A stretch of DNA of 64,000 nucleotides from Chiloscyllium plagiosum (taxonomy: Eukaryota). Below, in pieces: positions 7,556-46,315 of the stretch (positions are counted from its first letter, which is position 1; every line of letters starts with the position of its first letter). The stretch is taken from positions 3,331,470 through 3,395,469 of the forward strand of contig NC_057719.1 of assembly GCF_004010195.1 (NCBI RefSeq), given 5' to 3'. Position numbers and translations under genes: made by a program. A model generated the notes under the pieces. The model saw only the letters and a list, made by a program, of their open reading frames with translations, had not been told where the DNA came from and ran no database searches.

Positions 7556-8187
7556 GGTTAGTCTGATCTTAGAGTAGTATTAAAGGTCGGCACAACATTG
7601 AGGGCTGAAGCGCCTGTACTGTGTTTCAATGTTCTCTGTTGTAGTTTCTATGTATCTCATGATAATGCAGGTTTTGAAGAACATTTAAAAGGACATTTCC
7701 ATTTTAAAACTCTGCACATTGGAAACATCGTCAATCACTTAAAAAACGCCTCTCCAAGATTGGAGTCTGCAGCAGGTCATTGTCTGTTGCAGAAGAATGT
7801 CTTTAAGAGATTTCCACAGGTTCCTAGTCGCATATCACAAAAGGAAGATGTGAGAATACAGCTAACCTGTATGAACATTGGAGAAAGAATAGGCTATTCA
7901 GCCCCTTTAGCTGAGTCACCACTCCTGCCCCAAAGCCATACTCCTGAGCTATCCACACAGCTTGCCTTTCCATCCTCACGGGACTGTGTACGGGCTTTTG
8001 GGCCGGGCCTCACCTGCTCCCATCTGCTTTCTTTTCCATTTATTTCTGCTCTTTGTTGTTCTCCTGTTCCTTGTTCATTTTCTCTTTTCTTTAAAGTCTT
8101 TTGATGAGTTGGGTTAATCAGTGGCTCCAGCAGATCAGAAACAGCAGGCCATGTGTGGAACAGTGGGCAGCTTCCCAGTGATTGGCA

Positions 8188-15084: not shown

Positions 15085-18000
15085 CAACTGGGATCAATTG
15101 AATCCCAAAAAGATTAGAAAGACATTACGAGCATAATTAATAGGGAATTCAGGAGGGCAACAAGGGGACATTAGATCGGCTTTGCAGATAAGGTTAAGGA
15201 AAATCCAAAGAGATTCCAAAAATACATCAAGGGAAAAAGAGTAATTAGGGGAGAATAGGACTTCTTAAAGATCAACATAGCTGTCTATGTGTGGAACCAC
15301 AGGAGATGGTTGAGATATGAAACATGGATTTCCTGTCAGTGTTTATTGCGGAGAACAGTATAGAAGTGAGAAAACTTGGGGAAATAGGTGGTGACATCTT
15401 GCAGATTGCTCATATTACAGAGGAGGAGCTGTTGGATGTCTTCAAATGCACTAAGATGGAAAAATCCTCAGGACCTGGTTCGGTGTATCCCGGATGTTTG
15501 TGAGAAGCTAGGGAAGTGATTGCTGGGCCTCTTGTAGGATATTTGTATCATCGATAGTCACAGGTGAGATGCTGGAGGAGAGGATGTGGCTAACATGATG
15601 CCACAATTTAGGAGCGGTTGTAAGGAAAAGCCAGGGAATGACAGACTGGGGTTGTTGGAGAGAATCCAGGGGCAGGATTTACATACATTTGGAAAGGCAA
15701 GGACTGATTAGCAAAAGTGAACATGACTTTGTGCATGGGAAATCATGGCTCACAAACTTGAGTCTTTTTGAAGAAGTGACAAAGAAGATTGATGAAGGCA
15801 AGGTGTCTATATGAACGTCAGTTAAGCATTCAACAGAGTTCTGCAAGGTAGACTGTTAAGAAGTCAATGGCATGTACTTTACCTTTAAGAGAGATTGAAT
15901 ACTGTTCTGAACTGAGAGCTTATATGCATCTGTGAGGTGACAAGATGGCAGTCCCAGAGTGTAATAGAAAATTGAAAATACAGAACATTTGGCTGTGAAA
16001 CAAATACCTGAATTTTGGTTGCTATGTTTTCACAACAGTTTAAATTTAACTAATTAATTTAAGTTATGCCCCAGGATACTAAAACCCTATCAAATTTGAA
16101 TTTACTGTTTTGACAACATTGAACCAATGAGGTGATCCGATGTTTAGGGTGTCAAGAAACCGGCATTTTGAGAGTTAAAAAGAGACAGAGTGAGTAAACT
16201 GCTATCTGGAGAGAGATTTTCATTCAAAACACTCTCTATCAAAGGTACCTTTTCATATGAGACGTCTTTGCAGCAAATGACTGGAGATGATCCAGGGAGA
16301 TCGAGAGCCAGAGAAAGGAGGACACTGGAGACAACAGCTGCTGTGTGGTTTTGAAATTAACTTGATGTAATATTAGCATGGGCTCTATTTAGAACAGTAT
16401 ATTGTTATAGAGTTGGAGATAGATAACAAAACTTGAAGCAAAAGGAGGCTTAGAGTTGTAAATATTTAACGTTCACTTTTAGAATTAAAGAATAAATTGA
16501 TATTTTTTTCTTTAAATCATGGAATTTAGGAGTTCTCTATCACTCATACTTTAACAGATTAAGAGGCGTAGTGAGCTTTTCTGGGACTTTGGTTTAATTA
16601 GCAGAAGTGTTCACCGCAGTGTTGTAACGAGACTGGTTAGCAAAGTTAAATCACATGGGATCCAGAGGGAGCTCGCCATTTAGATACAAAATTGGCTTGA
16701 CAGTAGGAGACAGAGGGTGGGAGGGGGGTTGCTTTTCAGACTGGAGGCCTGTGACCAGTGATGTGCCACAAGGATTGTGCTGGGTCCAATGCTTTTTGTC
16801 ATTTATATAAATAATGTATACATGAATATAGGAGGTTTGGTTAGTAAGTTTGCGGATGACACCAAAATTGAAGATCTATTGGATAGGGACAGCCAGCACG
16901 GATTTGTGAAGGGTAGGTCTTGCCTTACAAGTCTTATTGAATTCTTCGAGGAGGTGACCAAGCATGTGGATGAGGGAAGAGCAGTGGATGTAGTGTACAT
17001 GGATTTCAGTAAGGCATTTGATAAGGTTCCCCATGGTAGGCTTATGCGGAAAGTCAGGAGGCATGGGATAGAGGGAAATTTGGCCAATTGGATAGAAAAC
17101 TGGCTAACCGGTCGAAGGCAGAGAGTGGTGGTAGATGGTAAATACTCAGCCTGGAGCCCAGTTACAAGTGGAGTTCCGCAGGGACCAGTCCTGGGTCCTC
17201 TGCTGTTTGTAATGAGGTTGAGGAACAGAGGGATCTTGGGGTCTATGTACATAGATCTTTGGAGGTTGCCACTCAGGTGGATAGAGTTTGTAAGAAGGCC
17301 TATGGAGTATTATCGTTCATTAGCAGAGGGATTGAATTCAAGAGTCGTGAAGTGATGTTGCAGCTGTACAGGACTTTGGTTAGGCCACATTTGGAGTACT
17401 GTGTGCAGTTCTGGTTGCCTCACTTTAGGAAAGATGTGGAAGCTTTGGAGGGGGTGCAGAGAAGATTTACCAGGATGTTGCCTGGAATGGAGAGGAAGTC
17501 GTACGAGGCTAGGTTGAGAGTTCTCGGCCTTTTCTTGTTGGAACGGCGAAGGATGAGGGGTGAGTTGATAGAGGTTTATAAGATGATCAGAGGAATAGAT
17601 AGAGTAGACAGTCAGAAACTTTTTCTCCGGGTACAACAGAGTGTTACAAGGGGACATAAATTTAAGGTGAAGGGTGGAAGGTATAGGGGAGATGTCAGGG
17701 GTGGGTTCTTTACCCAGAGAGTGGTGGGGGCATGGAGTGCGCTGCCCGTGGGAGTGGTAGAGTCGGGATCATTGGCGACCTTTAAGCGGCATTTGGATAG
17801 GTACATGGATGGGTACTTAATCTAGGTTAGAAGTTCGGCACAACATCGTGGGCCGAAGGGCCTGTTCTGTGCTGTATTGTTCTATGTTCTATGTTCTATG
17901 TTCTAAGTTTATCTCAGAGTACAATGCTACCTTTGGCAGATGGAGAAAGTTAAAAATCACATAACGTCAGGTTATAATTTATTTGGAAGCACTAGCTTTT

Positions 18001-18860
18001 AGAACGATGCTCCTTCATCAGTAGCAGATGGATCAATGGGCCAAGGAGTGGCAGATGGAGTTTAATTTAGACAAATGTAAAGCGCTGTATTTTGGAAAGG
18101 CAAATCAGAGCAGGACTTATACACTTAATGGTAAGGTCCTGGGAGTGTTGCTGAACAAAGAGATCTTGGAGTGCAGGTTCATCCTCCTTGAAAGTGCAGT
18201 CGCAGTCGGACAGGATAGTGAAGAAGGTGTTTGGTATGCTTTAATTTGTTGGTCAGAGCATTGAGTACAGGAGTTGGGAGGTCATATTGCAGCTGGATAG
18301 GACATTGATTCGGCCACTTTTGGTATACTGTGTGCAATTCTAATCTTCCTACCGCAGGAAAGATGTGAAACTTGAAAGGGTTCACAAGAGATTTACAAGG
18401 ATGTTGTGGAACTGAAAGGCTTGAGGGAGAGACTGAATAGGCTGGGGCTTTTTCCCTGGAGCATCGAAGGCTGAGGGGTGATCTTAAAAACTTATAAAAG
18501 CATGAGGGGCATGGATAGGGTGAACATCCAAGGTATTTTTCTTCCCACAGTAGGGTAGTCCAAAATGATAGGGTATAGATGTTAAGATGAGGGGCAACAT
18601 TTTCACACAGAGGGTGGTGTGTGTATGGAATGAGCTGCCAGAGGAAGTGATGGAGGTGGTACAATTACAACATTTAAAAGGCATCTGGGTGGGTATATGA
18701 ATAGGAAGGGTTTAGAGAGATATGGGTCAAATGCTGGTAAATGTGACGAGATCAGTTTAGGATAACTGATCAGTATGGATACTGATCAGTTTAGGATATC
18801 TGATGAGTTGGAACAAAGGGTATATTCTGAGCTGTGTAACTCTATGACTCTATGGCCCTA
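15085..18860 (+). mobile_element. CR1 LINE carrying a solo LTR and a younger nested CR1 (about 16875-17905)
   Basis: SQHGFVKGRSCLT, YMDFSKAFDKVPH, GVPQGPVLGP, VRPHLEYCVQFW; (TTCTATG)n tail at 17880. Confidence 0.9.
15854..16629 (+). mobile_element. Solo LTR (same family as 21296-22018 and 35901-36683)
   Basis: TGTT...TAACG flanked by 4-bp TSD AGAC (15850-15853, 16630-16633) inside CR1 sequence GGTAGACTGGTTAG. Confidence 0.88.
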
Positions 18861-19761
18861 TGATTCTACATGGTGGAAGTGCTGCCCCTGTGCTGTTGCA
18901 GTCAGTTCCTGTGATCATGAAGGGGCTATGAGGCATTAGGGCAGCACAGTGGCTCAGTGGTTAGCACTGCTGCTTCATAGCACCAAGGACTTGGGTTACA
19001 CCATGTTCCTCCCCCAGCCCAAATATGTGCAGGTTAGGATAGATTGATCATGCTAAGTTGCCCCTAGGGTCCAGTGATATGCAGGTGAGGTGGGTTGGCC
19101 ATGGGACATGCAGGGTTACAGGGATGGTGTGGGTCTGGGTGGGTTGTTGTTTGGAGAGTCAGTGTCGACTTAATAGGCCGAATGGCCTGCTCCCACCCTG
19201 TAGGGAATCTATAATTCCAAGTCAGAATATTCTGTAATGGTTGGAATTGATGCTGTTCCTGTGCCCTCTGGCCATGTTTATTAGAGAGGTATTGTCCCAT
19301 TTCACATCTGCGCCGTCTCTAGCCTGAGGGCTGGATGATGCCGCTGACAGTCACTTCCTTTTTTCACTGAAGGGGAAGTGCTTTGTACAAACTCCGCACA
19401 AAACAGCAGCTCGTGAAGAGCCAGCAGTGAGAGTGTGTGGAGCTACAGGAGAGATTCCTGTTTCAGCAGCCTCTCTCCCCCCCCTCCCCCCAGGGAAGAC
19501 AGCCCTCCCTCTCAGTCTCCTCACCTCTGGCTGGCCTCAGCAGCTCTTTCACAGCCTCTGGAGGTCTCTCACTCGGTAAGTGTCTGCTCATCTCTCCCTG
19601 ATTGCTGTCCATTGTCCTGGCTTCCACTTCCATGGGACCCCTCAGCCAGATTCCCAATACCGGATGCAATGGCACAAGTTGCAGTGGAGACTCCCGCATT
19701 TCGGAAATTTGGGGAAGACTTACCTTTTCTCCTCCCTGGGTGGGAGAGCATGAGACCCCCT

Positions 19762-19794
<33 letters not shown>

Positions 19795-21300
19795 GAATAA
19801 CAAGCAGTGAAATGATCAGTCAGGGCAGGTTTCCAAAAGAGAGTGAGGATCTGGTTCTGATGGAATGAGGGTTTCTGGAGAAGAGTTGACCCCGTTTCTC
19901 CTGCTCCTGCCAGAATTGCTGAGTTGCTGCAGTTTGGATTTCCAACATCTGCAATGCTTTGTTGTTGTCAGGAATGTGTCTGAGAAAGTACTTCAGGAAA
20001 GGTTGCTTAATGACACAAAAATATGCCATAGAGTCACAGAGCAGGGAAGCATATCCTTCAGTCCAACTTGTCCATGCTGAGCAGACATGCTAAATTATTC
20101 GAGGGATATGGGCTAAATGCTGGAATATGGGACTGGATTAATTGAGGATATTTGGTCGGCATGCAGAAAATGGACTGAAAGGTCTGTTTCTGTGCTGTTT
20201 ATTTCGATGACTCTGTAAGTTGGTGAATGTGGTAGTTCAGCCCAGACAGGGTGAGAAAGACAGAGACTAACTGAAAAAGTTGGGACTAAGTACTGATTGA
20301 GTAACAGCCGCTGGGCCTGGACTGACATTGTCCACAATGAGCTGGGGACGTTCTGCAGATGTGAAGACTATTGGGGAAGGCCGGACCGAGGGAAATCCCA
20401 TTGGTTGGCTGTTGCTCTCAGTTCGGAATCAGGTTATTTCAGAGAAGGAGATTTTCTATAATCAGCAGGAGGTTTCCTTGCACATGTTTTGAACATTGTT
20501 TTTGAGTGATTTATATGCTTTGTGAATTCTTAAGCCAATTTGTAAGGTCTGACTTAGCTGTATCTGCCATAAACGTATAATTTATTCTTCCCCTTTGTCT
20601 AAGGTCCCTATGGATAATATAGCTGTGTGTCCCTGTGTGTTGTTGCAATGGAGCGATGCTCCATGGTCTGGTTACAATTCTCTATCTTTGTCAGAAAGGC
20701 TAACTGGTCTCTGTCTCTTTTCTCACAGGCAGTGCCCCAATGAATGTCCACACAGCTCCCAACCAGTCCCTGGTACCGGCTCCTAATCTCAGCGCAGTCA
20801 ACAGCTCCAATGGCTCACTCGCTTGCCCCGAAGGTAATTTCTGGGAGTGGCTGTACACCTTTCAGCCGATTTACATCATGGTGGTGTGTGTCACTGGCGT
20901 TGTGGGGAACAGTTTTGTCCTGATGGTCCTGTGTTTACAGAAAGGACGTTGCACGGTGCCAGAGCTCTACCTGGGGAATCTGGCTGGGGCTGACCTGCTC
21001 CTGTTGGCTGGCCTCCCCTTCTGGGCCATTAACATTGCCCTACACTACGAATGGCCCTTTGGAGATTTCCTGTGCCGTTACGTCAACTCGGTGATTTATA
21101 TGAACTTTTATAGCAGTGTCTACTTCCTGGTGATGGTCAGCATTGACCGTTACCTGGCTCTGGTGAAAGTCCTTCATTGCGGCAGAATGCGGACACTCTC
21201 ATGTGTCAAGATCAACTGCTTCATCATCTGGATGTTCAGCTTGCTGATGAGTAGTCCCATCATCATTTTCCGAAGAGTGATCTATGTGGAAGATTTGAAC
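18660..21300 (+). repeat. Segmental duplication of the receptor 5' region (partner about 41660-44906), in three homologous blocks
   Basis: 18660-19677 matches 41660-42643; 20101-20560 matches 43021-43480; 20687-21300 matches 44293-44906. Confidence 0.9.
19430..19581 (+). other. Duplicated probable non-coding exon 1 and donor of the truncated receptor copy; start approximate
   Basis: Near-identical to 42400-42547, GTAAGT at 19576-19581. Confidence 0.55.
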
Positions 21301-21303
21301 TGA
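20740..21303 (+). pseudogene. Truncated duplicate of the B2-like bradykinin receptor (TM1-TM4, 187 aa)
   Basis: About 13 nt differences in 561 nt versus 44346-44906; homology stops after ...GATTTGAAC and the TGA stop comes from the adjoining LTR. Confidence 0.9.
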
Positions 21304-24147
21304 GAAATTACAAGCCCCTGTGTATGTCATGAGATGGCAGTCCCAGAGTGTACTGGAATATTGAAAATATGTAACGTTTAGCTGTGAAATGGATATCTGT
21401 TGCCGTTTTGTCAGCAATTTGAATTTAACCAATCAGTTTAAATTATGCCCCAGGATACTAAATCCCAATCGAGTTTGAATGTATTATTTTGCCAACATTG
21501 AACTGATGAGATGATCCGGTGCTATGGGGTATAAAATGCAGAACTTTTTAAAATTGGTTAGAGAACAACTGCCATTGACACAGAAACATAAGGGGAGCTA
21601 ACATCGAGCTCGCCAAGACATTAGGAACCACTCTGTATCAAAGGTACGTTTTCCCATGAAACATACTCGCAGTAAAAGGTAAGAAGATGACCCAGGGAGA
21701 TCTTCAGTGGAAGACTGAGGTACAGGAGAAGGCAGCAGCTGTGTGGTTTTGAAATTAAGTGGATGTATCTTTAATAAATGTCTTATTGGAACAGCATATT
21801 GTTATAGAGTTGGAGGCGTATAATAAAGTTAAGGGGAGTGTGTTTGAGTTGTGAATAGTTGCTTAGTGTTCACTTTTGGAGATAAAAAATAAATTGATGT
21901 TATTTTCTGAAAAAACATGAAATTAGCTCGTTCTCTGTCCCTCCTAGTTTTAATAGCTTACAAGCTTTCCTGGGAGTTTGGTTTAATTAACAGAGGAATT
22001 CGCATCTGTGTCATAACAGTTTGGGGTCTTGGGTCCGAGATTTGGACAGCTTTAGACAAATCCAGTCGGGGATTTGGACAGTTTGAACTGACTTGGGGTA
22101 CAGAAGACCCCAGCAGATTTAAAAACTTGCTGATTTGTGGCCTAGATCGCGAAATAAAACATAGGTGAGACAATTTGTAAAGTTTTGGTTACTTGTGAGT
22201 GGTTAATTCAAAGTGAGGGAAATGGCTCTTAACATTGCCAAGAGCTTCTGGGGTTTGAAGGTGCTTCCCAAATTTGCCAAGAAATTTAAAAAGACAGAAG
22301 AAGGGCATACTTTTAGAATTAGCAAATAGATTAGAATTGGGTTTAAGCTCGGATTCAAGGAAAGCTGAAATTGTCATGGAATTGGTCAAGCACTGTAACA
22401 GACAAGTGCAGTAGGGTTAAAAAAAACTTAAATTGCAATTGCAGCAAATGGAGTTAGAAAATTGAGAAAGGAAAAGAAGAGCCATGTTAGAGGAAAACAT
22501 GTATGTGTGTGTGTGTGTGAGAGAGAGAGAGAAGAAAGAAAAAGAGAGAAGGAAAGAGAGAAAGAGAGAAGGGAGAAAAAGAGAGAGGAAGAGAGAAGGG
22601 AGAAAAAGAGAATGAAGAAAGAGAAAGGACAATGAAAGGGAAGGAAGGTTCTTAGCTGAGCAAAGAAAGAGAAAAGGAAGTGAAAGAGAAGGGGAGGGAA
22701 AATTTGAACTTCAGAAGTTGAACTTAACAGGATAGAGATGAAGGGAGAAGATAGTGACGTATGTAAAGATGTTAAAGCATTGCCACATTGTGATGAGAAA
22801 GACGTCAAAGCTTTCTTTATTTCATTTGAAAAATTGGCGAGGCAGCTGGATGGGCTGGAGAACATGTGGGTAATGCTAGTTCAGACTGAGCTGGTAGGCA
22901 GATCTCGAGTTATTTGTACTGCTGCCAGATGAGGGGTGGAGAGATTATGCACATGTCAAACAGGCTATTTTGAGTGCTTATGAATTGGTACCAGAAGCAA
23001 ACAGGCAACAGTTCAGAAACATAAAGAAAGAACCAGGTCAGACTTAGGTTGAGTTTGAAAGAATTACACATCGTCATTTTGATAGATGGTTGTGGACCTA
23101 AAAAATAAATAGGACACACAAGGCTTTAAGAGAGATTATTCTGCTGGTGGAGTTTAAAAAGCTCACTGCCAGAGATGCTAAGAATTCATGTGGATGAACA
23201 GAAAGTTCAAGAACTGAGAAGAGCAGCAGAGATGGCAGATGAATATGCACTGGTGCATAAGGCAAAGTTTAGCTTCAGGCAAGAATTTCATCTTGTGAGG
23301 GATAGACATTCGGAGAAAGGGGGATCCTACATTACAAAACAAAGAGTAGAGCACCCTAGGAATAATTTACCACAGGTTAAAGAAGAAGCCCAAGGGCTAA
23401 AAAGGAAGTGAAAGGCCTCAGGTATTTTCACTGTAATGGAGTGGGACACAGAAAATTATAGTACCCGTGCTTTCAGAAGGGCACTGGGAAAGTTGTTTTC
23501 ACTGCCAGAAGGTGGGACACATAAAGACACAGTGCTAGTCATTAAAGAACGGCACTGTGGGGAAAGATGTGGTAAAAGAAGCTAAGCCAGTGGCATTAGT
23601 GAAGGTAGTAAAGGAGACCCCAAGAAGAGCTGAGCAGCTGCAGGAGAGTGCACATGTAGTAACAAGATCCCACTGTCATAAGACACAGCAAGAAGCAAAA
23701 ACTAAAGAGGAAGATGAAAGAGTTAGCTGACAACTGGTGCAGAACAATTCTGAACAGTTAAAGGGTCAGGCAGAAGTGTTTATCCCTGAAAAACACTTAC
23801 AACAGAAAGACGAGACAATAAAAGATATATTTATGTTAATGCATACTCAGAAAAGGAATCAGGATGCATTTTTGAGGGTTATTGTCTGAAAGATATAATC
23901 CTAAAACAAAAATGGAGACCACGGCAAGTTAGTGCAGAGGAGAAATGGGCCGAAGTGCACCAGATTGTGTTGCTGATAGCATACAGACAGAAAGTGTTAC
24001 AGGTAGCACATGAAATACCTGTAGGAGATCACCTAGGTGTGAGGAAGACTCAGGCTAAGGTACAAAAGCATTTCCATTGGCCTCGAATGCACAAGGATGT
24101 GGTTACATTTTGCCATAACTGTCAGACATGCCAAATGGTAGGTAAAC

Positions 24148-26650
24148 TTCTGAAGATACACAAAGTGAACACACCAGGATGTCCCATCATACCAGGAAAT
24201 GGGACCCTGTGTGAGAGCCTCTTGAAACCCATTGTACAGGGGACCGTCAGCTTCTGTTGCCACACTACAGATTTCTTACAGAAACTCAGCATCCATAGAC
24301 CAGTCCAACCGGGAACATTCCTCGTCACAATGGACAGTTCAGCACTCTACACCAATATCCCCCATAATTATGGCATCATGGCAACAGCTATAGTATCAAT
24401 CCCGACAACTGCCAATCTCCGAGCACCATCCTACAACTCATCCGCTTTATCCTCGATCACAACATAGAGTCATAGAGTCATAGAGCTGTACAGCATGGAA
24501 ACAGACCCTTCAGTCCAACCTGTCCATGCCGACCAAATATCCCAACCCAATCTAGTCCCACCTGCCAGCACCTGGCCCATATCCCTCCAAACCCTTCCTT
24601 TTCATATGCCCATCCAGCTGCCTCTTAAATGCTGCAATTGTACCAGCCTCCACCACATCCTCTGGCAGCTCATTCCATACATGTACCACCCTCTGTGTGA
24701 AAAAGATGCCCCTTAGGTCTCTTTTATATCTTTCCCCTCTCACCCTAAACCTATGCCCCTCTAGTTCTGGACTCCCCGACCCCAGGGAAAAGACTTTGCT
24801 GATTTATCCTATCCATGCCCCCTCATAATTTTGTAAATGTTCATGTTTGACAACCAGTTCTTCATCCAGACACATGGAACAGCCATGGGGACCAAATTTG
24901 CACCCCAATATGCCAACATGTTCACCCACAGGTTTGAACAAGACTTCTTTTCTATGCAGGATCTCCAACCAACATTATACACCAGGTACATTGACAACAT
25001 TTTCTTCCTCTGGACCCATGGCGAGGCGTCACTGATAAAACTACACAGTGACATCAACAAGTTTCATCCCACCATCAAACTCACCATGGACTACTCTCTA
25101 CTTTCTGTCTCATTCTTGGACACATGCATCTCCATCAAGGATGGACACCTCAGCACCACACTCTACCACGAACCCACGGATGACCTCGTGATGCTACACT
25201 TCTCCAGCTTCCACCCATAACATTAAAACAGCCATACCCTATGGACAAGCCCTACGCATACACAAGGTCTGTTCAGATGAGAAGGAATGTGATGGACACT
25301 TGGAAGTACTCAAGGATGCCCCCATTAGATTGGGGTAGAATGCTCAACTCATCGGCCGCCAGTTCCGACATGCCACAGTTAGAAACCTTAATGTCCTCCT
25401 CAGGAGACAGACATGAGCTGCACCGACAGGGTACCCTTCATTGTCCAGTACTTCCCAGGAGCCGAAAAACTGCGCCATGTTCTTTGCGGCCTGCAGCACA
25501 TTATCAATGAGGATGAGCACCTCACCAAGACCTTCACATCTCGCCAAACCTCAAACAGATTATTGTTTGCAGCAAACTGCCCGGCTTTCAGGACAACTCC
25601 ATACAACCCTGTCACGGGAGGCACTGCAAGAGATATCAGAGGGTCGACATGGATACCACCATGTAGCGTGGGGACACCTCCCACCATGTACATGGCAGGT
25701 ACTGATGTGACTCAGCCAGTGTAGTCTATTTCATACGCTGCAGCCAAGAATGCCCTGAGCCATGGTAGATTGGTGAGACCGAACATGGGCTACGGCAACA
25801 GATGAATGGGCACCGCACAACAATCAACAGACAGGAGTGTTCCCTCCCGGTTGGGGAACACTTCAGCGGTCCAGGACATTCAACCTCAGACCTTCGGGTG
25901 ACCATCCTCCAAGGTGGACTTCGGGACAGGCAGCAGTGCAAAGTGGTCAAGCAGAGGCTGATAGCTAAGTTCCATACCCATAGGGAGGGCCTCAACCGGG
26001 ACCTTGGGTTCATGTCACGCTTCAGGCAACCCATTGCATTATACACACAGACAGACAGACGCGCACACACACAGACACACTTGTACAGACACAGACAAAC
26101 AGACACTCCTACACAAACACATGCACACACACTCCTGCACACACACACACACTCACACACACACACACACACACACACATATGCATTTGTGGGGTGAATC
26201 TGTACTTGCAGAATTACATTTAACTTTGCTCAAAAATTGCATGAATCCATGTGAGATTTTGTAAATCCATTTTTTAGATTAGAATCAGTCTGACTACTAT
26301 GGCACAGACAGTCTCACACAGAACAGCTTACAACTTAAATGCATTATCTGGGCTGACATGACACTAATTGTTAAAGTTCACTTGAGAATGTGAACTTAAA
26401 AAAAGTTCTGGGATTTACAAATGAAAGAACTGAAACCAACATGGTCATTCTAAAAGATGAGAGACTTAACAACAATCCAGGTCTTTTTCAATATATAATT
26501 TCAGTTACATCACACTGTAAACTTTTGCTATACATCCTGTGTCTTACAATCTCATATTCCACAAGCGGCTGATGAAGGAGCTTCACTCCGAAAGCTAGTG
26601 CTTCCAAATAAACCTGTTGGACTGTAACCTGGTGTTGTGTGATTTTTACC
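24148..26650 (+). mobile_element. Penelope-like retroelement (RT + GIY-YIG endonuclease + pseudo-LTR), degenerate
   Basis: LxKIHK, LVTMDxxALYTNIPH, GTAMGTKFAPQYAN, RYIDNIFFLW, VVYFIRC..IGET..RMNGHR; hammerhead at 26569; CR1 3' piece inserted in reverse at 24464-24836. Confidence 0.88.
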
Positions 26651-26651
26651 T

Positions 26652-29600
26652 TCAAAACATACCACACTACAATCCAGATTGAATTGAGTATATTGACAAT
26701 CTTAAAAGCTAATGATGCAATCCAATGTTTTGGGGGTATAAGACGGGGATAAACTGAACAGTTGAGAGGAGAACTACCAAGGAACCAGCTTGGAAAAAAG
26801 ACTGCTCAAAAAGTAGCTCTCTTAAAGGTACCTTTATCAGCCAGTAAGCTGTAAAACAGAATCCCCAAGAAGAAGAAAATAAAACAGGAATACAGAGAAA
26901 ACTGAAAGCTGCCTGGTTTGGAGATATGAAGTTTTGTTTTGTAAATCTTAATCGGGGGTTTTATTGGACTAGTATTATAGAGGGAAAGGTAAAAGATAGG
27001 TTAGATGAAGGAGTTGTAAATAGTTGTTAGTTAGTTATTCTATGTTATACTTTAAGAAATAAAGTTGTTAATTTTTACTTTAAATAGATTTTGACCTCTC
27101 AAATTTTCACAGATTACTGCACGGGATAACTCTTTTCTGTGTTGTTGGTTTTAAATAAGCAGGAGGGATTACCCCATGTCATAGAGTCATAGAGATGTAC
27201 AGCATGGAAAGGACCCTTCAGTCCAACCCGTCCATGCCGACCAGATATCTCAACCCAATCTAGTCCCACCTGCCAGCACCCGGCCCATATCCCTCCAAAC
27301 CCTTCCTATTCATATACCCACCCAAATGCCTCTTAAATGTTGCAATTGTACCAGCCTCCACCACTTCCTTTGGCAGCTCATTCCATACACGTACCACCCT
27401 CTCGTAATCGTTTGGGGCTCGTCATCGGGAATTGAACTGGTTTAGATTGATTTGAATAGATTTGGGGGTACAAAAAATCCCAGCAGGTTTAAACATTTGC
27501 AGGTTAGTGTCCTAGGTCTTTAAATAAAATGTAGGTGAGACAATTTGTTTAGTTTTGGCAACTTGTGGTTGATTAAATTAAAAGTGAAAGAAATGGCTCT
27601 TAAAATTGCTAAAAAGGTTCTGGGACATGAAGATGTTTCTCAGACTTGCCACGAAAGTGTAGAAGGAAAGATGAAGGCCATTCTTTTAGAATTAGCAAAT
27701 AAGTTTGATTTGGGATTAACCAAAGATAAAGGTAAAACTAAAATTGCCAGGGAGTTACTCAAACACTTAGGTGTGTCAGAGAAACAGCCAAGTGCAGGAG
27801 AGATGTAAAACTTTAAATTACTATTGAGGAAAATGGAGTCAGAAGATAAACAAAGGGAGAGAGAAAGGGAGAGAAAGGAAAACAGGGAGAGAGAGAGGTT
27901 TTTAGTTGTGCAAAGAGAGAGAGAAGAAAGGGAGAAAGAGAGGAAAAAGAAAGAGAGAGCAAGTTCTTAGCTGAGCAAAACGAGAGAGAATTGGAATTTG
28001 AGAAGATGATGAGAAAGATGTTAAAATCTTTTTTATTTCATTTGAAACATTGTTGAGGCAAATGGAGTGGCCCGAGGATTCATGAATAATGGTAGTTGAG
28101 ACTAAACTGGTAGGCAGAGCTAGTGAGGGATTTGCTGCACTGTCAGATGAGGGGTCAAGAGATTATGAAGAGGTTAAACAGGTTATTTTAAGTGTTTATG
28201 AATTAGTACCAGAAGCATGCAGACAGCGGTTCAGAAACACAAAGAAGGAACCAGGTCAGACTTATGTTGAGTTCAAAAGAATTAAACATTGTCATTTTAA
28301 TCAATGGGTGCGTGCTTTGAAAATAGATAGGACCTTTGAGGCTCTGAGAGATTATTTAAAACTCACTTCCAGAGACGGAAAGAATTCACGTAGAGGGACA
28401 GAAAGTTCAGGAAGTGAGAAGGGCAGCAGAATTAGCAGTCAGAAGACAAGCTTTCAGCCAGAATATCGTCCTGTGAGGGATAGAAGTTGGGAGAAGGGGA
28501 AAGCCGACATTCCGAAAGAACGAGTAGAGAACATTGCTAATAATTTGCCACTTGTTAAAGAAGCCCAAGAGCGTGAAAAGGAGGTGAAAGGCCTCAGGTA
28601 TTTTCACTGTAATGGAGTGGAACACAGAAAATTACAGTGCCCGTGGTTTCAGAAGGGCCCTGGGAAAAGGTGTTCCCACTGTGAGAAGGTGGGACATGTA
28701 AAGTCACAGAGCTGGTCATTAAAGAAAGGCACTATGGGAAAAGATATGGTAAAGAAGCTAAGCCGATGGCATTAGTGAAGGTAGTAAAGGAGACCCCAAG
28801 AAGAGCTGAGGAGCTGCAGGTGAGTGCACAGCCCAGGCAGGGGCTGGATACGGAGTTAGTACCTGATCTCTATAAAGAATTCGCCTCTGTGGGTAAAGTT
28901 TACTCAGGAAGAACAGGGGGAAAAGGACAAGAAGTTATATTTTGAGAGATACAGGACCTAACCAGTTGCTGATAGCAAGGGATAAGCAAATATCCTCTCT
29001 TTCTGATCTGTTACTCGGGAGTGTGGTAATTCCTGGAATAGATGTTTTGCATTCCCCAATGTAAGGTCAGGTTAGAATGCCAACTCCAGACTGGGGAAGT
29101 TACTGTGGGAGTGACTGACAGAGTGTCAGTTCCAGGAATTCAGTTTGTTCTTGGGAATGATTTGGCAGGATCCAAGGTGGGAGTGGTACCCCTTACTGTG
29201 GAGAAGCCCAAGGAAGACCAAGAAACTGAGGAGTTAAAACAGAAATATCCTGGTATTTTCCTAGACTTTGGGGTAACCAGATCCCACTGTCATAAACCAC
29301 AGCACAAAGCAAAAAGTAAAGAGAAAGATGAAGGAATTGAGATTCAGTTAGTGGCCACCCTGTATTATGTAATGATGCAGGAAAAAATTGTATTTTTTGC
29401 CATTAGAGATGCCCTAAACGAAACTACTCAGTTCACTCCCTTTGGATTAATATTTGGGCATGAAGTGAGAGGCCCTTTGAAATTAATTAAAGAAAAATTG
29501 ACAGGCCCAAAGTCAGAGATCTCACAATTACATTATGTGTCGGAGGTGAGGGAGAGACTAAATCGAGTAGGTGAGTTAATTATACAGCACCTAAAGAGGG

Positions 29601-31648
29601 CACAGTGTAGAATGAAGCAGGTGGCAGATAAAAACTCTGAGACCCAGACGTTTTCCCGAGGGGATGACGTGTTAGTACCGTTACCACTGATAGGAGATCC
29701 CTTCAAAGCCAGGTTTAGTGGTCCCTATCAACTTGAGAAAAAGTTGAGTCAGGTGAACTATCTAGTAAAGATGCCAGATAGAGAAAAAAAGGTATCGGGT
29801 ATGCCATGTGAACATGTTGAAACTATATTATACTAGAGGGAGATACAGGTGTTAGTTACTGCCTTGCAGTGTGAGGAATCCAATCCAGATGATGTGGATT
29901 GTGATGTACCTCAAAATAGATTAAAAAATGAAGAAGTCCTTGAGGGGTGGGATAGGTTAGTAAGCTGTCTGTCTCGGGAGCATAGAACGTTGTTGAAAGA
30001 TTTGTCACTGCTGTATAAGGGCATATTTAAGAACAGAATTTGCTAAAGCAAAGGTAACATTCTTGAGACATAACATTGGTCATGGAAGGTTGACCTCACG
30101 GAACACAAAGACGAAGGTCATCGAGGAATTTCCATGACCAACCTCGAAGAAAGAGGGGCTTCGATTCTTAGCACTCAGTGGATTCTATCAGAAGTTTGTT
30201 CCAAATGTCAGCAGTGTAGTGGCACCATTAACCGATTTGCTGAAGAAGAACACAACGTTTTGGTGGACAGAACAATGCCAGGAGGCATTTGACCGTTTGA
30301 AATTGATATTAACCACCAAACCAGGTTTAGCTACACCAAACTTTTCAAAACCTTTTAAAGTCGCCATCAATGCCAGTGACAGTGGAGTTGGAGCTGTCCT
30401 CCTGCAGGAAAGTGAGGATGGGACTGAACTGTCAGTTGGTTACTTTTCAAAGATCAACATCCCCCAGAGAAAATACTCCACCATCGAAAAGGAACAACTG
30501 CGTTCGGTCCTGGCTTTACAGCATTTTAATGGGCATGTCACCAACAACGTGTCAGAGACGGTTGTGTACACAGATCTTTCTTAGAACACTTTAAAGGCAA
30601 GAATGAGACTATTTCATTGGAGTCTTATGTTACAACTTTTAATTTAAAAATTGTACGTGTTGCGGGTCATAAGAATGTAATTGCAAATGTGTTATCTTGG
30701 ATTTAACATGTAGAAATTTGTCTTTATTTAATGTTATGTATTTACAGGTATATGGGAAGAAATTAAGGTGAACTTATATTAAACTTATCAGTATGTTAGG
30801 GTAATGTGTTTAAAAAGTAGAGAAAAAATGAAGCCATCTTTTCATTATGATGGTTCATTTTTTCTTAATGGGGAGTGTTATGAAGATGTGGATGTAGAGT
30901 AAAAGCTAGCAGTGACAGCACCAAGTGTTCTCAATAAGCACAATGTAACGTGCTCCAGCTACTGGGGTAGCTAGTTACCTGGAAATGACAAAACAGATTT
31001 GAATTAGGTCAATCGGTTTAAATTATACCCTAAAAATTACCAAACCCCAATCCAGTTTGAATTGAGTATATTGACAATCTTAAAATCGAATGACACAGTC
31101 CGATGCTTTGGGGGTATAAGACTGGGGACAATTGAACAGTTGAGAGGAGAACTGCTAAGCTACCAGAATGTAAAGACTGCATGAAAAATACCTCTCTTAA
31201 AGGTACCCTTAGAGATCAGTAACCTGTAAAAGAGAACCCCAAGAAGAAGAAAAGAAGATAGGAATACGGAGAAAACTGAAAGCTGCCTGTTTGTGAGATA
31301 AAAAGTTTTGTTTTGTAAATCTTAATCGGGGGTTTTATCAAACCAAGGGCTTATGCCCGAAACGTCGTTTCTCCTTCTCCTTGGATGCTGCCTGACCTGC
31401 TGCGCTTTTCCAGCAACACATTTTTAAGTTTCATCAAACCGGTATGACAGAAGGGAAGGTAAAAGATAGGTTAGAGGAAGGAGTTCTAAATAGTTGTTAG
31501 TTAGTTATTATCTGTTGTACATTAAGAAATAAAGTTGGTAATTTTTATTTTAAATAGTTCTTGACCTCGCAAATTTTCACAGATTATTGCAAGGGATACA
31601 TCTTTTCTGTGTTGCTGGTTTTTAAATAAGCAGATAAGTGTCATAACA
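26652..31648 (+). mobile_element. Gmr1-like Gypsy element 2, internally deleted, nested in the integrase of element 1
   Basis: 5' LTR remnant 26652-27408 matches 3' LTR 30876-31648; PBS TTTGGGGCTCGTC; gag YELVPEACRQRFR, protease LRDTG, integrase C-terminus FSGPYQ, RNase H; integrase and RT cores missing. Confidence 0.8.
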
Positions 31649-33279
31649 CTTATCAAATTGAGAAAAAGAGTTGAGTCAGGTAAACTGTCTGATAAAGATG
31701 GCAGATGGTAAAAATTGTGTTGGGTGTGTTATGTAAATCTGTTAAAATCTTACTTTGGTAGAGACAGGGAACTGGAGAAACAGGTATTAGTTACTGCCCT
31801 GCACAGTGAGGAATTAAATTCAAATGTCAACGAGTTTTGATGTGTCTCAAAATATGTTAAATAATGAGGAATTCCTTGAGGAGTGGGATAGATTAGTGAG
31901 CTATCTGTCTCAGGAGCAAAGAAACGCGTTGAAATGTTTGTTGCAGCTGTATGAGGACCTGTGCAGGGATGAGTTGGGGAATACTAATACTATTGCGCAT
32001 GAGGTAGAAGTTGGGAATGCTGTTCCAATAAAACAATATCTCCAACAGACTTAATCCTCTCAAAGCCACACAGGTCCAGAAGAAAGTGGATGTGATGCTT
32101 AACGAAGATATCATCGAACCAGGTCAGAGTGAGTGGAGTTCACCGATTGCATTAGTTTCCAAACCTGACAGGACTCAACAATTGCGCATGGACTATCAGA
32201 AGGTCAACACCGCAACAAAATCAGACTCCTATCCAATCCCAAGATTGGAGGCATATATAGAGAAAGATGGACAAGCCACTTAAACCACAAAGTTGGACTT
32301 ACTGTGTGGTTATTGACAGGTACCTTTATCAGAGAAAGTGAAAGACCTTTCTGCATTTGTAATCCCAAATGAGCTATATCAGTTTAAAGTGACGCCCTTT
32401 GGAATGAAGAATGCCACATCCACATTCTAAAGGCTCATGAACAGAGTTGTGGCTGGGTTCACTAACTGTGCAGTCTATCGAGATGATGTAGCGATATTTA
32501 GCGAGTCATGGAAAGATCACATGGCCCACTTGGCAGAGCTCATTGAACGGATTACGAGAAGCAAAATGGGTAATAAACGTAAAGAAAACAGAACTTGCAA
32601 AGGTAGAGGTGATGTTCTTGGGACATGACATCGGTCATGGAAGATGGACCCCACGGAATGCCAAGCCGAATGTCATCGAGGAATTTCCATCCTCGAAGAC
32701 AGAGGTGTCTCGATTTTTGGGACTATGTGGATTCTATCGGAAGTTTGTTCCAAACTTCAGCAGGGTAGTGGCACCGCTAACTGATTTACGAAAGAAGAAC
32801 ACACAATTTTGGAGGCTTTTGAGATTTTAAAAGCAGTATTAACTATCACAACAGTTTTAGCTACACCACAATTTTTGAAACCCTTCAAAATTGCAATCAA
32901 TACAAGCAATAAAGGAGTTGGAGCTATACTGGTACAGGACGATGATGATGAATTGGCTACTTTTCAAATAAGATCAACACCCACTAGAGAAAATCCTTTT
33001 ACCATCGGAAAAGAGTTACTGAGTTTGTTCCTGGCCTTACAACATTTTATTGTTATTTTATTGTTGTATAATTTTATATTTTTTTTGTTTTACAACATTT
33101 TATTGTTTATGTGACGAACAATGTGTCAGAGACAGTTGTGCACACTGACCATAATCCTCTTACGTTGTTGGAATGATTTAGACAAAAATATGAGACAATT
33201 TCATTGGAGTCTTAGGTGTCTGACCTTTAGTTTGCAAGTTGTACATGTTGCAGGTTGTAAAAATGTGATATCACGGGGA

Positions 33280-35750
33280 TAAAGTAAAGAGGAAGAAGAA
33301 GGCTTATGTTAGGATGAGACATGAAGGCTCAGTTAGGGCGCTTGAGGGTTACAAGGTAGAAAGGAAAGACCTAAAGAGAGAGCTCAGAAGAGCCAAGAGG
33401 AGACATGAGAAGTTGTTGGCAGATGGGCATCAAGGAAAGCCCTAAGGCCTTCTATAGGTATATCAGGAATAAAAGAATGACTAGAGTAAGATTAGGACCA
33501 ATCAAGGACAGTAGTTGGAAGTTGTACGTGGAGTCCGAGGAGATAGGAGAAGCACTAAATGAATATTTTTCGTTGGTATTCACACTGAAAAAAGACAATG
33601 TTGTCGAGGAGAATACTGAGATGCAGGTTACTAGACAAGATGGGATTGAGGATTAGTGGTGCTGGAAGAGCACAGCAGTTCAGGCAGCATCTGAGGAGCA
33701 GTAAAATCGATGTTTCGGGCAAAAAGCCCTTCATCAGGAATAAAGGCAGAGAGCCTGAAGGGTGGAGAGATAAGCTAGAGGAGGGTGGGGNNNNNNNNNN
33801 NNNNNNNNNNNNNNNNNNNNNNNNNNNNNNNNNNNNNNNGATCTTTATGTCATCATTGTTTACAGGAATAGTGCCAGAAGACTGGAGGATAGCAAATGTT
33901 GTTCCCTTGTTCAAGAAGGGGAGTAGAGACAACCCTGGTAGACCGGTGAGCCTTACTTCGGTTGTGGGTAAAGAGTTGGAAAAGGTTATAAGAGATAGGA
34001 TTTATAATCTTCTAGAAAGGAATAGGTTGATTAGGGATAGTCAACACGGAATTGTGAAGGGTAGGTCATGCCTCACAAACCTTATTGAGAAGGTGACCAA
34101 ACAGGTGGATGAGGGTAAAGTGGTTGATGTGATATATATGGATTTCAGTAAGGTGTTTGATAAGGTTCCCCACGGTAGGCTATTGCAGAAAATACAGAGG
34201 CACGGGATTGAGGGTGATTTAGTGGTTTGGATCAGAAATTGGCTAGCTGAAAGAAGACAGAGGGTGGTGGTTGATGGGAAATGTTCATCCTGGAATTCAG
34301 TTACTAGTGGTGCACGGCAAGGATCCATTTTGGGTCCACTGCCATTCATCACTTTTATAAATGACCTGAAAGAGGGCTTAGAAGGATAGGTTAGTAAATT
34401 TGTGGATGACACTAAGGTTGATGGGATTGTGGACAGTGCTGAAGGATATTGCAGGTTACAGAGAGACATAGATAAGGGGGATACACGCAGCAAGTACATT
34501 ACACAGAGGGTGGTAGTTTCTGGAATGCTTTGCTAGCAGAGGTAGTAGAGGCAGTAGTTTCATTTCAAATGTGTCTGGACAGATGCATGAGTAGGTGGGG
34601 AGCAGAGGGATACAGATCCTTAGGAATTGGGTGACAGGTTTAGACAATCGATTTGGATTGGCTCAGGCTTGGAGGGCTGTAGGGCCTGTTCCTGGGCTAT
34701 AAATTTTCTTTGTTTCCTTTTTCTTTTTAAGCTGCAGAGCTGGGGTGAGAGGTGGCAAATGGAGTTTAATGCGGAAAAGTGTGAGGTGATTCACTTTGGA
34801 AGGAGCAACAGGAATAAAGAATACTGGGCTAGTGGTAAGATTCTTGGTAGTGTGGATGAGCAGAGAGATCTCAGTGTCCATGTACATAAATCCCTGAAAG
34901 TTGCCACCCAGGTTGATAGGGTTGTTAAGAAGGCATATGGTGTGTTAGCTTTTATTGGTAGAGGGATTGAGTTTTGGAACCATGAGGTCATATTGCAGCT
35001 GTACAAAACTCTGATGTGGTTGCACTTGGGAGTATTGTGGGGAGTTCTGGTCACTGTATTCTCGGAAGGATGTGGAAGCTTTGGAAAGGGTTTAGAGGAG
35101 ATTTACTAAGATAGTGCCTGGTATAGAGGGAAGGTCTTATGAGGAAAGGCTGAGGGACTTGAGGCTGTTCTTGTTAGAGAGAGCAAGGTTGAGTAATGAC
35201 TTAATTGAGACATACAGAAAGTCCTGGGGTTACAAACGTCCTGTACGTACGAACCAACCTCAGCTTCTCATTTATAAAAATTAGTTTAAAAAATCTGATT
35301 TACCTACAATGTTTCATCCTAATGAATGGGCAGACTAATTTACCCATATCTGTTCCAACTTACACATAAAGTTAGCTTATGAACAGCAGAAAAAATGGAA
35401 CCCTGGGGAGTTCCGGTATAAGATAATCAGAGGGTTAGATAGGGTGGACAGTGAGAGCCTTTTCCTCGGATGGAGATGGCGAGCATGAGGGGACATAGCT
35501 TTAAACTGAGAGGTGACAGATAGAGAACAAATATCAGAGGCATTTTCTTTACTTAGAGAGTAGTAAGGCCATGGAATGCTCTGTCTTCAACAGCACTAGA
35601 CTCGCCAACTTTAAGGGCTTTTAAATGGTCATTGGATAGATATATGGAGAAAAATAGAATAGTGTAGGATAGATAGGCTACATATTGGTTCCACAGGTCG
35701 GTGCAACATCCAGGGCTGAAGGGCCTATACTGCGCTGTAATGTTCTATAA
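33280..35750 (+). mobile_element. CR1 LINE inserted near the 3' end of Gypsy element 1
   Basis: [58 protein letters not shown]. Confidence 0.9.
35215..35416. mobile_element. Tc1/mariner (Tigger-like) MITE
   Basis: TA|CAGAAAGTCCTGGGG...CCCTGGGGAGTTCCGG|TA interrupting CR1 sequence GAGACATA/TAAGATAATC; imperfect TIRs. Confidence 0.55.
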
Positions 35751-37039
35751 GACTGGACAGATTCCAATGTAATATATATGTGTGTGCAGAAATTAATATG
35801 AATTTAGATTAATGACCTATGTATTTCATTGTAATGGGATTAAGAATTGGAAAAAAAATCTTTTCATTCTGATGGTTCATTTTTTTCTTAAAGGGGGAGG
35901 TGTTATAAAGTTGAAGGCATGTACTGTACCTTTAAGAGAGAGTGAATGTTGTTGTGAACTGAGAGATTCCAAACACCTGTCTATATGATTATATCACCAT
36001 GTCCCAGAATGCACCGAAAAATTGAAAATATGTAACATTTGGCTGTGAAATGGATACCTGTGTTAATTGCTGTTTTGACAACATTTTGAATTTAACCAAT
36101 CAGTTAAAACTATGCCCCAGGATGCCAAAACCCAATTGCGTTTGAATCTATTGTTTTGCCAACACTGAACTGATGAGATGATCTGATGTTGGGGACATTA
36201 AAATACAGGAATTTTGAAAATTGGAGATAGAGCAACTGCCATCAAGAGAGAGAGCCAAGAAATTCGGAAACACTTTTTCTCAAAAAAGGTACCTTGTCAT
36301 ATGAAACATATTCACAGTAAAAGGAAAGATGATGACCCAGGGAGATCAGCAGCTAGAAGAAGAAAGATGCAGAAGACATCAGTGGCTGTGTGGTTTTGAA
36401 ATTAAGTTGATGTAATTTTAATAAGTGTTTTACAGGAACAGTGTACTGTTATAGAGTTGGAGGCAGGTAATAAGCAGTAAAGAGAAAGGGGGGTGCTTAG
36501 AGTTGTGAATAGCTGTTGTTTAATGTTCACTTTTAGAGTTAAAGAATAAATTGATGTCATTTTCTTTAAATAGTGGAATTTGGGAGTTCCCTGTCATTCA
36601 TATTTTAACAGATTATGGGGTGAAGTGAGCTTTTCTGGGTGTTTGGTTTATTTAACAGAAAGTTTAACCGTTGAGTCATAACACAGGTTCAGTTCATTGA
36701 TTCCAAGAAAATGCTGGAATCTTTAATCATTGTAAATTCCAATTAACTTTCAAGACATGAATCCAGTTTCCTCCCACAGTTTGGTGATGTGCAGGTTAGG
36801 GTAGATTGACCATGTTAAATTGTTCATAGTTTCCAGGGATGTGCAGGTTAGAGGGAGGATTTAGCCATGGGGAATGCAGGGATCCAGGGATAGGGTGGGT
36901 CTGGGTGAGACGTTCTTATGAGCGTCGGTGTGGACTCAGTAGGCCGAACGGCCTGGTTCCACCTTGTGGGGATTCCACAAAACAAAATAGCAGACTATGG
37001 GATAACAAGACCTGTTGTGTGGGTTTAGAGTAAAGACAT

Positions 37040-41830: not shown

Positions 41831-42399
41831 CCCTATGATTCTACATGGTGAAAGTGCTGCCCCTGTGCTGTTGCAGTCAGTTCCTGTGATCATGAAGGGG
41901 CTATGAGACATTAGGGCAAAACAGTGGCTCAGTGGTTAGCACTGCTGCTTCATAGCACCAAGGACTTGGGTTACACCACGTTCCTCCCACAGCCCAAAGA
42001 TAAGCAGGTTAGAGAGGACTGGTCATGCTAAATTGCCCTTAGTGTCCAGGGATATGCAGGTGAGGCAGGTTAGCCATGGGACATGCAGGGTTACAGGGAT
42101 GGTGTGGGTCTGGGTGGGTTGTTGTTTGGAGAGTCAGTGTCGACTTAATAGGCCGAATGGCCTGCTCCCACACTATAGGGAATCTATAATTCCAAGTCAG
42201 AATATTCTGTAATGGTTGGAAATGATGTTGTTCCTGTGCCCTTTGGCAGCGTTTATTAGAGAGGTATTGTCCCATTTCACATCTGCGCCGTCTCTAGCCT
42301 GAGGGCTGGATGATGCCGCTGACAGTCACTTCCTTTTTTCACTGAAGGGGAAGTGCTTTGTACAAACTCCGCACAAAACAACAGCTCGTGAAGAGCCAG

Positions 42400-42547
42400 C
42401 AGTGAAAGTGTGTGGAGCTACAGGAGAGATTCCTGTTTCAGCAGCCTCTCTCCCCCCCGGGGAAGACAGCACTCCCTCTCAGTCTCCTCACCTCTGGCTG
42501 GCCTCAGCAGCTCTTTCACAGCCTCTGGAGTCTCTCACTCGGTAAGT
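42400..42547 (+). other. Probable non-coding exon 1 of the receptor with splice donor CG|GTAAGT (intron 42542-44334); start approximate
   Basis: Consensus donor GTAAGT at 42542 in non-repeat DNA, conserved in the duplicate at 19576; no transcript evidence. Confidence 0.6.
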
Positions 42548-45371: not shown

Positions 45372-46315
45372 CTCACTGAAGACCCACGACACACTGCCCA
45401 CACACAAGGAGCTGATTCGTTTGCAGATTCTCTTGTGAATGAGATAGATGGCACTAACACCTCCAACCTGACAATATTTCTTGTGATACGTGGTGTTAGT
45501 CTAGTTAGCAGCTGGCATGATGGGAAAATGAATCCAATCTCTGTATAATGTCAAGGAATGTAATGAAGTGTCCAGATCCCAAGCCTGTTTGTAGGCATCT
45601 GCTTTCACCCAGGGAATGGGAGGGAGATGTCGTCATACCATTTAGCTCCTATCGGTTGGGATGAAAACTCAGCAATGTCTTTGTGTGTCCATATGATGAC
45701 TCCTGGTCCTTAGATCCCCTGGTACTGTGTATCAAAAGAGGATAAATTTGAAGATGCTTGTCTCACCACCAGAACACTTTACTGGCCTGCACCTCTTTGC
45801 TGCCTTGGCTGACATGTGGATTCTGGTTGAGGGATGATGGGATATGGAGCAAAGGTAGATAGATGCAGTTAGGGCATGGAACCGCCATTACCATATTGAA
45901 CGATGGAACTGACTTGAGGGGCTGAATGACCTCCTCCTGATTTAAAGATTCATTCGGTTGGGTTGCTTATTCATGTCTTGAAAGTTAATTGGATGATGAT
46001 GATAAAAAGTGATCCACCATCTGGAAGGATTGCCAGCATTTTTCTGGAATCAATGAATTGAATTTGGATGTTGCCATTGGATTACATAACATTGGATTGT
46101 TATGTAATCCAATGGCAACAACCCTTTGGAACTGAGATGAGGAGGAATTTCTTCAGCCAGAGGGTGGTGAACCTGTGGAACTCATTGCCATTGAGGGCTT
46201 TGGAGATCAAGTCATTGAGTGTATTTAAGACAGAGACAGATATGTTCTCGATTAGTGAGGGGATCAAGGGTTCTGGGGAACATGGAGAGAATAGGGCTGA
46301 GAAACATGTAAGACT

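Follow-up and report, generated by a model that had tools for sequence, protein, structure and literature searches.

The window analysed here, a 64,000 bp stretch of the genome of the bamboo shark Chiloscyllium plagiosum (NC_057719.1, positions 3,331,470 to 3,395,469 of the forward strand), carries on its plus strand two copies of one gene unit, an upstream half copy and a downstream intact copy, which is a B2 bradykinin receptor (B2R), a member of the G-protein-coupled receptors (GPCRs). The open reading frame (ORF) of the half copy has 187 codons, from the ATG at 20740 to the TGA at 21301-21303, codes for transmembrane helices (TM) 1-4 of the receptor and ends within a long terminal repeat (LTR). 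This fragment is already present as an exact match in the NCBI protein set, as a product of automatic annotation, and so are the protein of the intact copy and a third receptor copy of 351 residues from the same species.

The ORF of the half copy is identical to positions 44346-44906 of the intact copy in 548 of 561 bases (97.7%). There are exactly 8 synonymous and 5 non-synonymous codon changes, just as a first-pass annotation of the bare sequence had counted at about 98% identity. The amino-acid changes from the intact to the half copy are S13P, D24N, V97I, L123F and Y147C, and the proteins are 97% identical. That annotation had also stated that the putative promoter, exon 1 and the splice signals are retained, and this holds: the upstream region and exon 1 (18641-19575) are 93-97.5% identical to the intact copy, and the donor (GT at 19576, TCG/GTAAGT), a branch-like CTAAC (20700-20704) and the acceptor AG (20727-20728) are all in place. 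No ATG was found in the putative exon 1 region 19380-19575, and there are no N letters within 18660-22020. A one-base indel near 19563 distinguishes exon 1 of the two copies. The intron of the half copy is more than a plain retention of that of the intact copy; its segments 19679-20097 and 20580-20687 have no counterpart there. The end of the intron specific to the half copy (20580-20728) also contains a second acceptor-like site (a pyrimidine tract with AG at 20602-20603) and four ATGs. Conversely, a segment of the intact intron (43738-43845) that is absent from the half copy matches an extra first coding exon of isoform X1 from the epaulette shark Hemiscyllium ocellatum (86%, 36 residues).

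The junction with the LTR

As a result of comparison with two other LTR copies in the window (15854-16629 and 35901-36683), the 5' boundary of the LTR at the junction could be assessed. Both of these copies start with TGTTA, 54 bases before a shared TGAAC, while the junction LTR begins only at this TGAAC, so that its first 54 bases are gone. The same five bases occur in the intact receptor gene, in codons 186-187. The stop codon of the half copy is supplied by the LTR, as the first-pass annotation had noted, and corresponds to LTR bases 60-62, which are internal and are not the TG terminus of the LTR. The 3' half of the receptor was not found in a search of the rest of the window, and no target duplication surrounds the junction, the 3' half of the gene being gone. 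Because the LTR lacks its first 54 bases, the 3' half of the gene is gone and a 5-base microhomology lies at the join, the junction is a deletion, which removed the last 154 codons of the gene, whatever followed, and the first 54 bases of the LTR. An insertion of the LTR into the gene was also considered; it was rejected, the LTR at the junction having no 5' end and the 3' half of the gene being absent. A clean insertion would show a whole LTR end, a target duplication and the rest of the gene beyond the element, and these were not seen. AATAAA signals occur within the junction LTR at 21773, 21822 and 21888; the last had been reported correctly, the first had been placed at 21772, and that at 21822 is additional.

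The LTR belongs to a Gypsy-type element, as judged from its TG...CA LTRs, a 4-base target duplication, a purine tract and an integrase that precedes the reverse transcriptase (RT) and RNase H. We take this domain order to be that of Gmr1-like elements. The element is old, because the junction LTR and its likely partner show a Kimura two-parameter (K2P) distance of 0.23, the gag region is full of stop codons (33-42 per plus-strand frame in 22220-24460), and a second element is nested within it. The age of the element bounds the date of the deletion without fixing it.

Table 1. Annotated features of the window (all on the plus strand), with the basis of each assignment. LINE, long interspersed nuclear element; ECL2, extracellular loop 2; UTR, untranslated region.
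Feature	Position	Strand	Basis
Solo LTR, same family as the junction LTR	15854..16629	+	4-base target duplication AGAC; reference for the true 5' end of the LTR
LINE-derived fragment, outer diverged edge of the duplicated unit	18036..18640	+	about 80% identity with 41008-41638, K2P 0.25; LINE identity suggested by RT-like ORFs and repeat matches
Upstream region, putative promoter	18641..19404	+	93-96% identity with 41639-42379
Putative non-coding exon 1 of the half copy, start approximate	19405..19575	+	97.5% identity with 42380-42541, no ATG
Intron of the half copy	19576..20728	+	shared block 20098-20579 (96%) flanked by copy-specific segments
187-codon ORF: N-terminus, TM1-TM4 and start of ECL2 of the B2R	20740..21303	+	stop from the LTR
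TGAAC microhomology at the deletion junction	21296..21300	+	present in the intact gene and in the other LTR copies
5'-clipped LTR with stop, putative 3' UTR and AATAAA	21296..22018	+	LTR comparison; X10 contigs 21271-21443 and 21433-21799
Decayed interior of the Gypsy-type element: gag-like part, integrase ahead of RT/RNase H, a second element nested inside, further repeats	22019..35900	+	
Full LTR following a purine tract; probably the element's 3' LTR	35901..36683	+	80% identity with the junction LTR, K2P 0.23; presumed pair
Putative exon 1 of the intact gene	42380..42541	+	alignment with the half copy
Intact B2R-like gene, short-tail type, 341 residues	44346..45371	+	7tm_1 positions 1-260

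The junction in public sequencing runs

Twenty-four public sequencing runs were listed, and 20 of these contain part of the region 20600-22020; ten have half or more of its sequence words, up to a share of 0.82, while the exon makes up 0.39 of the query. None of the 24 runs is recorded as RNA, which speaks neither for nor against transcription. Four of the runs were aligned to 19800-22480, a stretch that starts downstream of exon 1.

One of the four, X10, has the same organism label as the best-matching runs and is tagged 'DNA?'. Its depth is zero in the unique intron bins 19800-19979, 20250-20429 and 20520-20609, the second of these although it is present in at least two copies, while exon depth is 10-25. 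An X10 contig covering 21112-21300 (depth 14.2) stops exactly at the junction, as at a fork, and another one (21271-21443, depth 7.84, two other letters) crosses the junction with 30 gene-side bases. This 30-base overhang is what a fork in a 31-mer graph gives. The adjoining contig 21433-21799 extends over 367 bases of the LTR at a depth of 11.9 with one other letter; the other LTR copies of the window match this span at 68-74% only. Toward the 3' end, half-copy-type depth runs through 5.6, 5.2, 7.84 and 11.9 and then falls to 3.5 beyond the LTR (contig 22019-22220), which fits a polyadenylated RNA ending in the LTR. We are fairly confident that X10 is RNA. Because X10 holds the junction and behaves like RNA, misassembly is unlikely and it is likely that the half copy is transcribed.

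The first-pass annotation had asked whether the copy might be a misassembled haplotype, which the junction-spanning contig makes unlikely, and had proposed an expressed isoform in place of a dead pseudogene. Expression is backed by the empty intron bins, the junction contig and the LTR contig and, with a run tagged 'DNA?', stays short of proof; the word isoform has to be dropped, the half copy being a separate gene.

In two further runs with other organism labels, X14 and X17, contigs of the intact gene run off the aligned region at two points, the acceptor and 21300. The 146-171 non-intronic letters that these contigs carry 5' of the acceptor point to the length of exon 1. The small word share of X17 is due to one intact-gene contig with 96% identity. 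From the raw single-cell run X22, of which about 6% was read, no reads aligned, and this does not constitute a test. The X10 contig 21112-21300 is the only one listed; it leads into the junction and yet shows intact-type letters at full depth, and there is no G at 20809. These odd letters possibly represent polymorphic conversion tracts or a collapsed bubble.

The predicted fragment and its intact sister genes

The closest solved relative of the intact copy is human B2R (E=1.5e-97), followed by B1R (4e-64) and AT1R (1.6e-51). The half copy covers positions 1-125 of the 260 positions of the 7tm_1 profile. Its product has four hydrophobic segments and, in an AlphaFold model of low confidence that was used for the helix count only (mean pLDDT 61.6, pTM 0.47), four long helices, short of the seven of a receptor. 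All 19 invariant columns within residues 1-187 are intact in the half copy, and the DRY motif at the end of TM3 is kept (D136, R137, Y138). TM5-7 are lost, and with them C191 and C284, which are invariant and are disulfide partners, W263 of CWxP, and N308 and Y312 of NPxxY, all of which lie beyond residue 187. In human B2R (PMC8821558), these two cysteines have C112 and C29 as their partners, in the TM3-ECL2 and the N-terminus-TM7 disulfide. The fragment also has no W6.48 toggle, no NPxxY, no helix 8 and none of the peptide pocket that TM5-7 contribute. The fragment is predicted to end in early ECL2, on the luminal side, and should neither bind kinin productively nor couple to Gq. Judged from its sequence, the product derives from B2R and is no receptor, having neither the seven helices nor the disulfides and activation motifs. 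According to PMC3477067, most GPCRs cut to four or five helices are held in the endoplasmic reticulum (ER), and many are dominant-negative in vitro. The probable fate of the four-helix product is ER retention followed by degradation, with no signalling.

Two types of intact gene can be distinguished by their tails (…RKRAETQSQ and …SRTTTVKS). The short-tail and the long-tail type both occur in C. plagiosum, C. punctatum, H. ocellatum and Stegostoma, and therefore the intact duplication predates these genera; the carpet-shark families split before the Cretaceous-Paleogene boundary (PMC8529718). Over 330 residues of protein body, the intact sisters are 5, 6 and 14 differences apart in the three hemiscylliid species, against 23-29 between species. 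In a tree of 15 rows, from which tails had been removed, the copies group by species with supports of 90/89, 100/98 and 95/97, and 100/99 for Stegostoma; the C. plagiosum node is the one with only 90/89. Paralogs which are more alike within than between species are a hallmark of concerted evolution (PMC2720389). Since these old sisters are so alike within species, the intact genes, as seen from their proteins, evolve in concert by gene conversion.

The half copy differs from the two intact sisters by 4 and 5 of 185 residues, and these differ from each other by 3. At the DNA level, identity between half and intact copy is a mosaic: it is 80% where the outer LINE fragment lies and reaches 93-98% in exons 1 and 2, the upstream region and a single block of the intron, while two intron segments cannot be aligned. 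I97 and F123 of the half copy also occur in the third copy, which is intact, and both other species have N24; P13 and C147 are the only residues private to the half copy among the sequences compared. When the half copy is compared with the intact one, the ratio of non-synonymous to synonymous divergence (dN/dS) comes to 0.18, which departs from neutrality with a binomial p=0.003. Because of these shared residues, most of the low dN/dS signal may come from functional donors. In simulations, 13 random substitutions left an ORF of this length open in 59% of the trials. With the intact sisters homogenized to a like degree (5/330) and a frame that survives so often, high identity, open frame and low dN/dS make up a weak argument for a functional fragment, an argument that the first-pass annotation had implied. 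The rule that 98% identity must mean recent or selected was likewise rejected, the intact sisters being equally alike. We consider it likely, from these comparisons, that conversion from its intact sisters keeps the half copy in frame and almost identical to them. The same mosaic and the same shared alleles would also follow if the third copy had recently been duplicated.

The remainder of the window is rich in repeats. Just past the stop codon of the intact gene there is a 275-base inverted repeat with 99.6% identity (45817-46091 / 47685-47959), which encloses a direct duplication of 386 bases (46862-47247 / 47240-47625, 97%); the structure 45817-47959 may be a recent insertion, an inversion or an assembly feature. 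Another decayed integrase-first Gypsy element, with gag, integrase and RT/RNase H matches, lies at 53670-57692. Tandem minisatellite arrays occupy 8186-9033, 10527-10689 and 48530-50430, and N gaps are found at 9034-9644, 33791-33839, 60317-60385 and 61643-62066.

Origin and possible roles of the half copy

We lean towards a third tandem B2R copy that was cut after codon 187 by deletion into an old Gypsy-type LTR, that is likely transcribed into this LTR and likely maintained by conversion, and whose product is probably a non-signalling fragment degraded in the ER. A tandem duplication would have given rise to this copy, a Gypsy-type element would have inserted, and a deletion would then have joined codon 187 to the interior of the LTR at the TGAAC microhomology. 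The half copy would be transcribed from its own putative promoter and polyadenylated in the LTR, and conversion from the intact sisters would keep it alike and in frame. Its four-helix product would probably stay in the ER, be broken down there and give no signal; if the full receptor were damped at all, this would be a by-product and no selected function.

Several points weigh against this account. The 30 gene-side bases of the junction contig are one short of a 31-base bridging rule. X10 has a depth of 5.78 on the intron end 20610-20699, about the exon depth of the half copy, and may thus be capture-type DNA, or RNA that is unspliced at the intron end; if so, transcripts keeping 20610-20728 would carry ATGs at 20610, 20648, 20656 and 20663 before the ORF. 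The contig 21112-21300 has intact-type letters at 21150, 21179 and 21267. In X10, much of the receptor signal seems to stem from the half copy, more than would be leak. For X14 or X17, no junction contig is among the contigs listed (with 1126 further pieces outside these). The dN/dS of 0.18 equally fits selection on the fragment. Finally, the DNA comparison covers the copies of the window only, so that conversion onto the half copy, like any age given to the deletion, is presumptive.

Parts of this history have parallels elsewhere. As in the human duplicates SRGAP2C and ARHGAP11B, described in PMC6169893, the upstream region and first exons are kept, the 3' part is lost and new sequence serves for polyadenylation or fusion; unlike these, the shark gene was cut by a deletion into an LTR within one GPCR coding exon, in an old tandem array under conversion. 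CCR5-delta32 (PMC8829453, PMC3477067) and a 4TM variant of the GIP receptor (PMC3477067) likewise break in ECL2 after TM4 and lack TM5-7, and here too signalling is predicted to be lost and the product to stay in the ER; but these are an allele and a splice variant, whereas the shark fragment is encoded by a separate gene with a clean stop and without a frameshifted tail. Concerted evolution as reported for CCR2 and CCR5 (PMC2720389, PMC8877049) also leads to paralogs more alike within species and to mosaic identity, but in the shark the partners that are homogenized would include a truncated copy. In Sebastes schlegelii, eight tandem Bdkrb2 genes are described, five of them predicted to have six TM (PMC7968187). 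Such fish arrays resemble the shark locus in tandem multiplication with incomplete copies, and differ from it in that the latter belongs to a shark lineage and has a four-helix copy with a defined LTR junction. Amblyraja, with six annotated cluster members, offers a similar case. No paper on this locus or on a tandem fusion with 11 TM was found in the open literature, most subscription journals being outside the search.

It is unlikely, though worth considering, that the 187-residue fragment is a selected, co-expressed dominant-negative which would bind nascent receptor in the ER and lower its surface delivery and kinin signalling. The retained promoter, exon 1 and splice sites, the likely substantial expression in X10, the 19 of 19 intact invariant columns and the dN/dS of 0.18 would agree with such a role, and truncated GPCRs with four or five TM often act in this way in vitro, as described for the 4TM GIP receptor variant and CCR5-delta32 (PMC3477067). 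However, conversion explains identity and frame without selection, and in 59% of cases the frame would stay open through 13 changes anyway. A 187-type protein is not listed for C. punctatum in a 90% protein cluster of eight members, and none of 185 candidates (102-328 residues) is another TM1-4 fragment at E<=1e-50; a search with the 187-residue protein matched one of these 185, an N-terminally short whale-shark model which is no TM1-4 fragment. Ten shark and ray clusters (23 members) contain neither a TM1-4 fragment nor a fusion. In addition, the four upstream ATGs would precede the ORF if transcripts carry the intron end 20610-20728.

Somewhat less probable still is a very recent duplicate which arose by unequal crossover between LINE copies near 18640 and was soon cut, an ordinary young pseudogene without conversion. 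The jump of identity from 80% to 93% inside the shared LINE fragment is what a LINE-LINE crossover would give, at the present divergence of half and intact copy the open frame needs no upkeep, and the intron of the half copy could derive from the third copy. Against this, the junction LTR is about 20% diverged from its likely partner, and models from H. ocellatum hint at an older origin.

The same 90% protein cluster contains H. ocellatum models of 529 and 574 residues. In XP_060685468-70, a 185-residue TM1-4 unit is joined in frame to a 341-residue receptor, giving 11 helices. The join runs through (D)SAPM, residues which in the bamboo-shark window are encoded at the acceptor, and its position corresponds to 8 bases before the truncation in C. 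plagiosum. H. ocellatum has three receptor units, one of them modelled as ending at codon 185, and its first unit is closest to the long-tail gene (4 vs 9 differences), as is the half copy of C. plagiosum. These features hint that the truncation is old and common to both species, and that there may be an 11-helix receptor, the topology of which would be coherent. We regard as quite speculative a combined scenario in which the half-receptor gene predates the split of bamboo and epaulette sharks and is kept in frame by conversion, acting as a free four-helix kinin damper in Chiloscyllium and, with a donor gained at the cut end, as the front module of an 11-helix (4+7) GPCR in Hemiscyllium.

That the half gene is the N-terminal module of an 11-helix (4+7) receptor, linked by read-through splicing to the acceptor of the next gene, appears very improbable. 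The epaulette-shark join near the cut would agree with it, with four helices the join comes to lie on the extracellular side, as suits the N-terminus of a GPCR, and 3'-truncated human duplicates often fuse to downstream genes according to PMC6169893. However, the matching site in C. plagiosum reads GAAG/AT, with AT and no GT donor, and phase-1 GT sites in 21200-21300 are weak only and lie within or before TM4. No go-back joint is among the 15 joints listed, of 26. Fused two-unit models are common, as 11 of 13 other long matches, picked by length, are fusions of tandem receptor genes. Back-splicing to a circular RNA would mimic the 4+7 junction and give the same junction reads.

Many models from ray-finned fish (P0141-P0147, P0062, P0149, P0150) fuse two tandem bradykinin receptor genes, seven of them with 7+7 helices. 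A 531-residue model from Channa striata (P0148) has four helices plus a full receptor, joined in ECL2 at codon 185 as in the epaulette-shark model; either a cryptic donor or an annotation error may be recurrent. A chance of about 2% had been estimated for the coincidence of the H. ocellatum join with the cut, and this estimate is weakened by the unrelated Channa striata model at the same codon.

That the half copy or its junction is an assembly artefact is hardly credible: four N gaps lie elsewhere in this repeat-rich window and near-identical tandem genes invite misjoins, but an X10 contig crosses the junction where the shared exon contig ends exactly at 21300, ten runs have half or more of the words (up to 0.82) where the exon would provide only 0.39, and copy-specific intron segments exist.

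If the half copy is only a transcribed, converted relic, it clearly warns against reading function from near-identity, an open frame and a low dN/dS where GPCR genes stand in tandem. Should the fragment be produced and dampen the full receptor, a shark would have a natural dominant-negative GPCR encoded by a gene of its own. Should the 4+7 model of the epaulette shark correspond to a real transcript, it would indicate how a broken paralog can turn into a receptor with additional helices.

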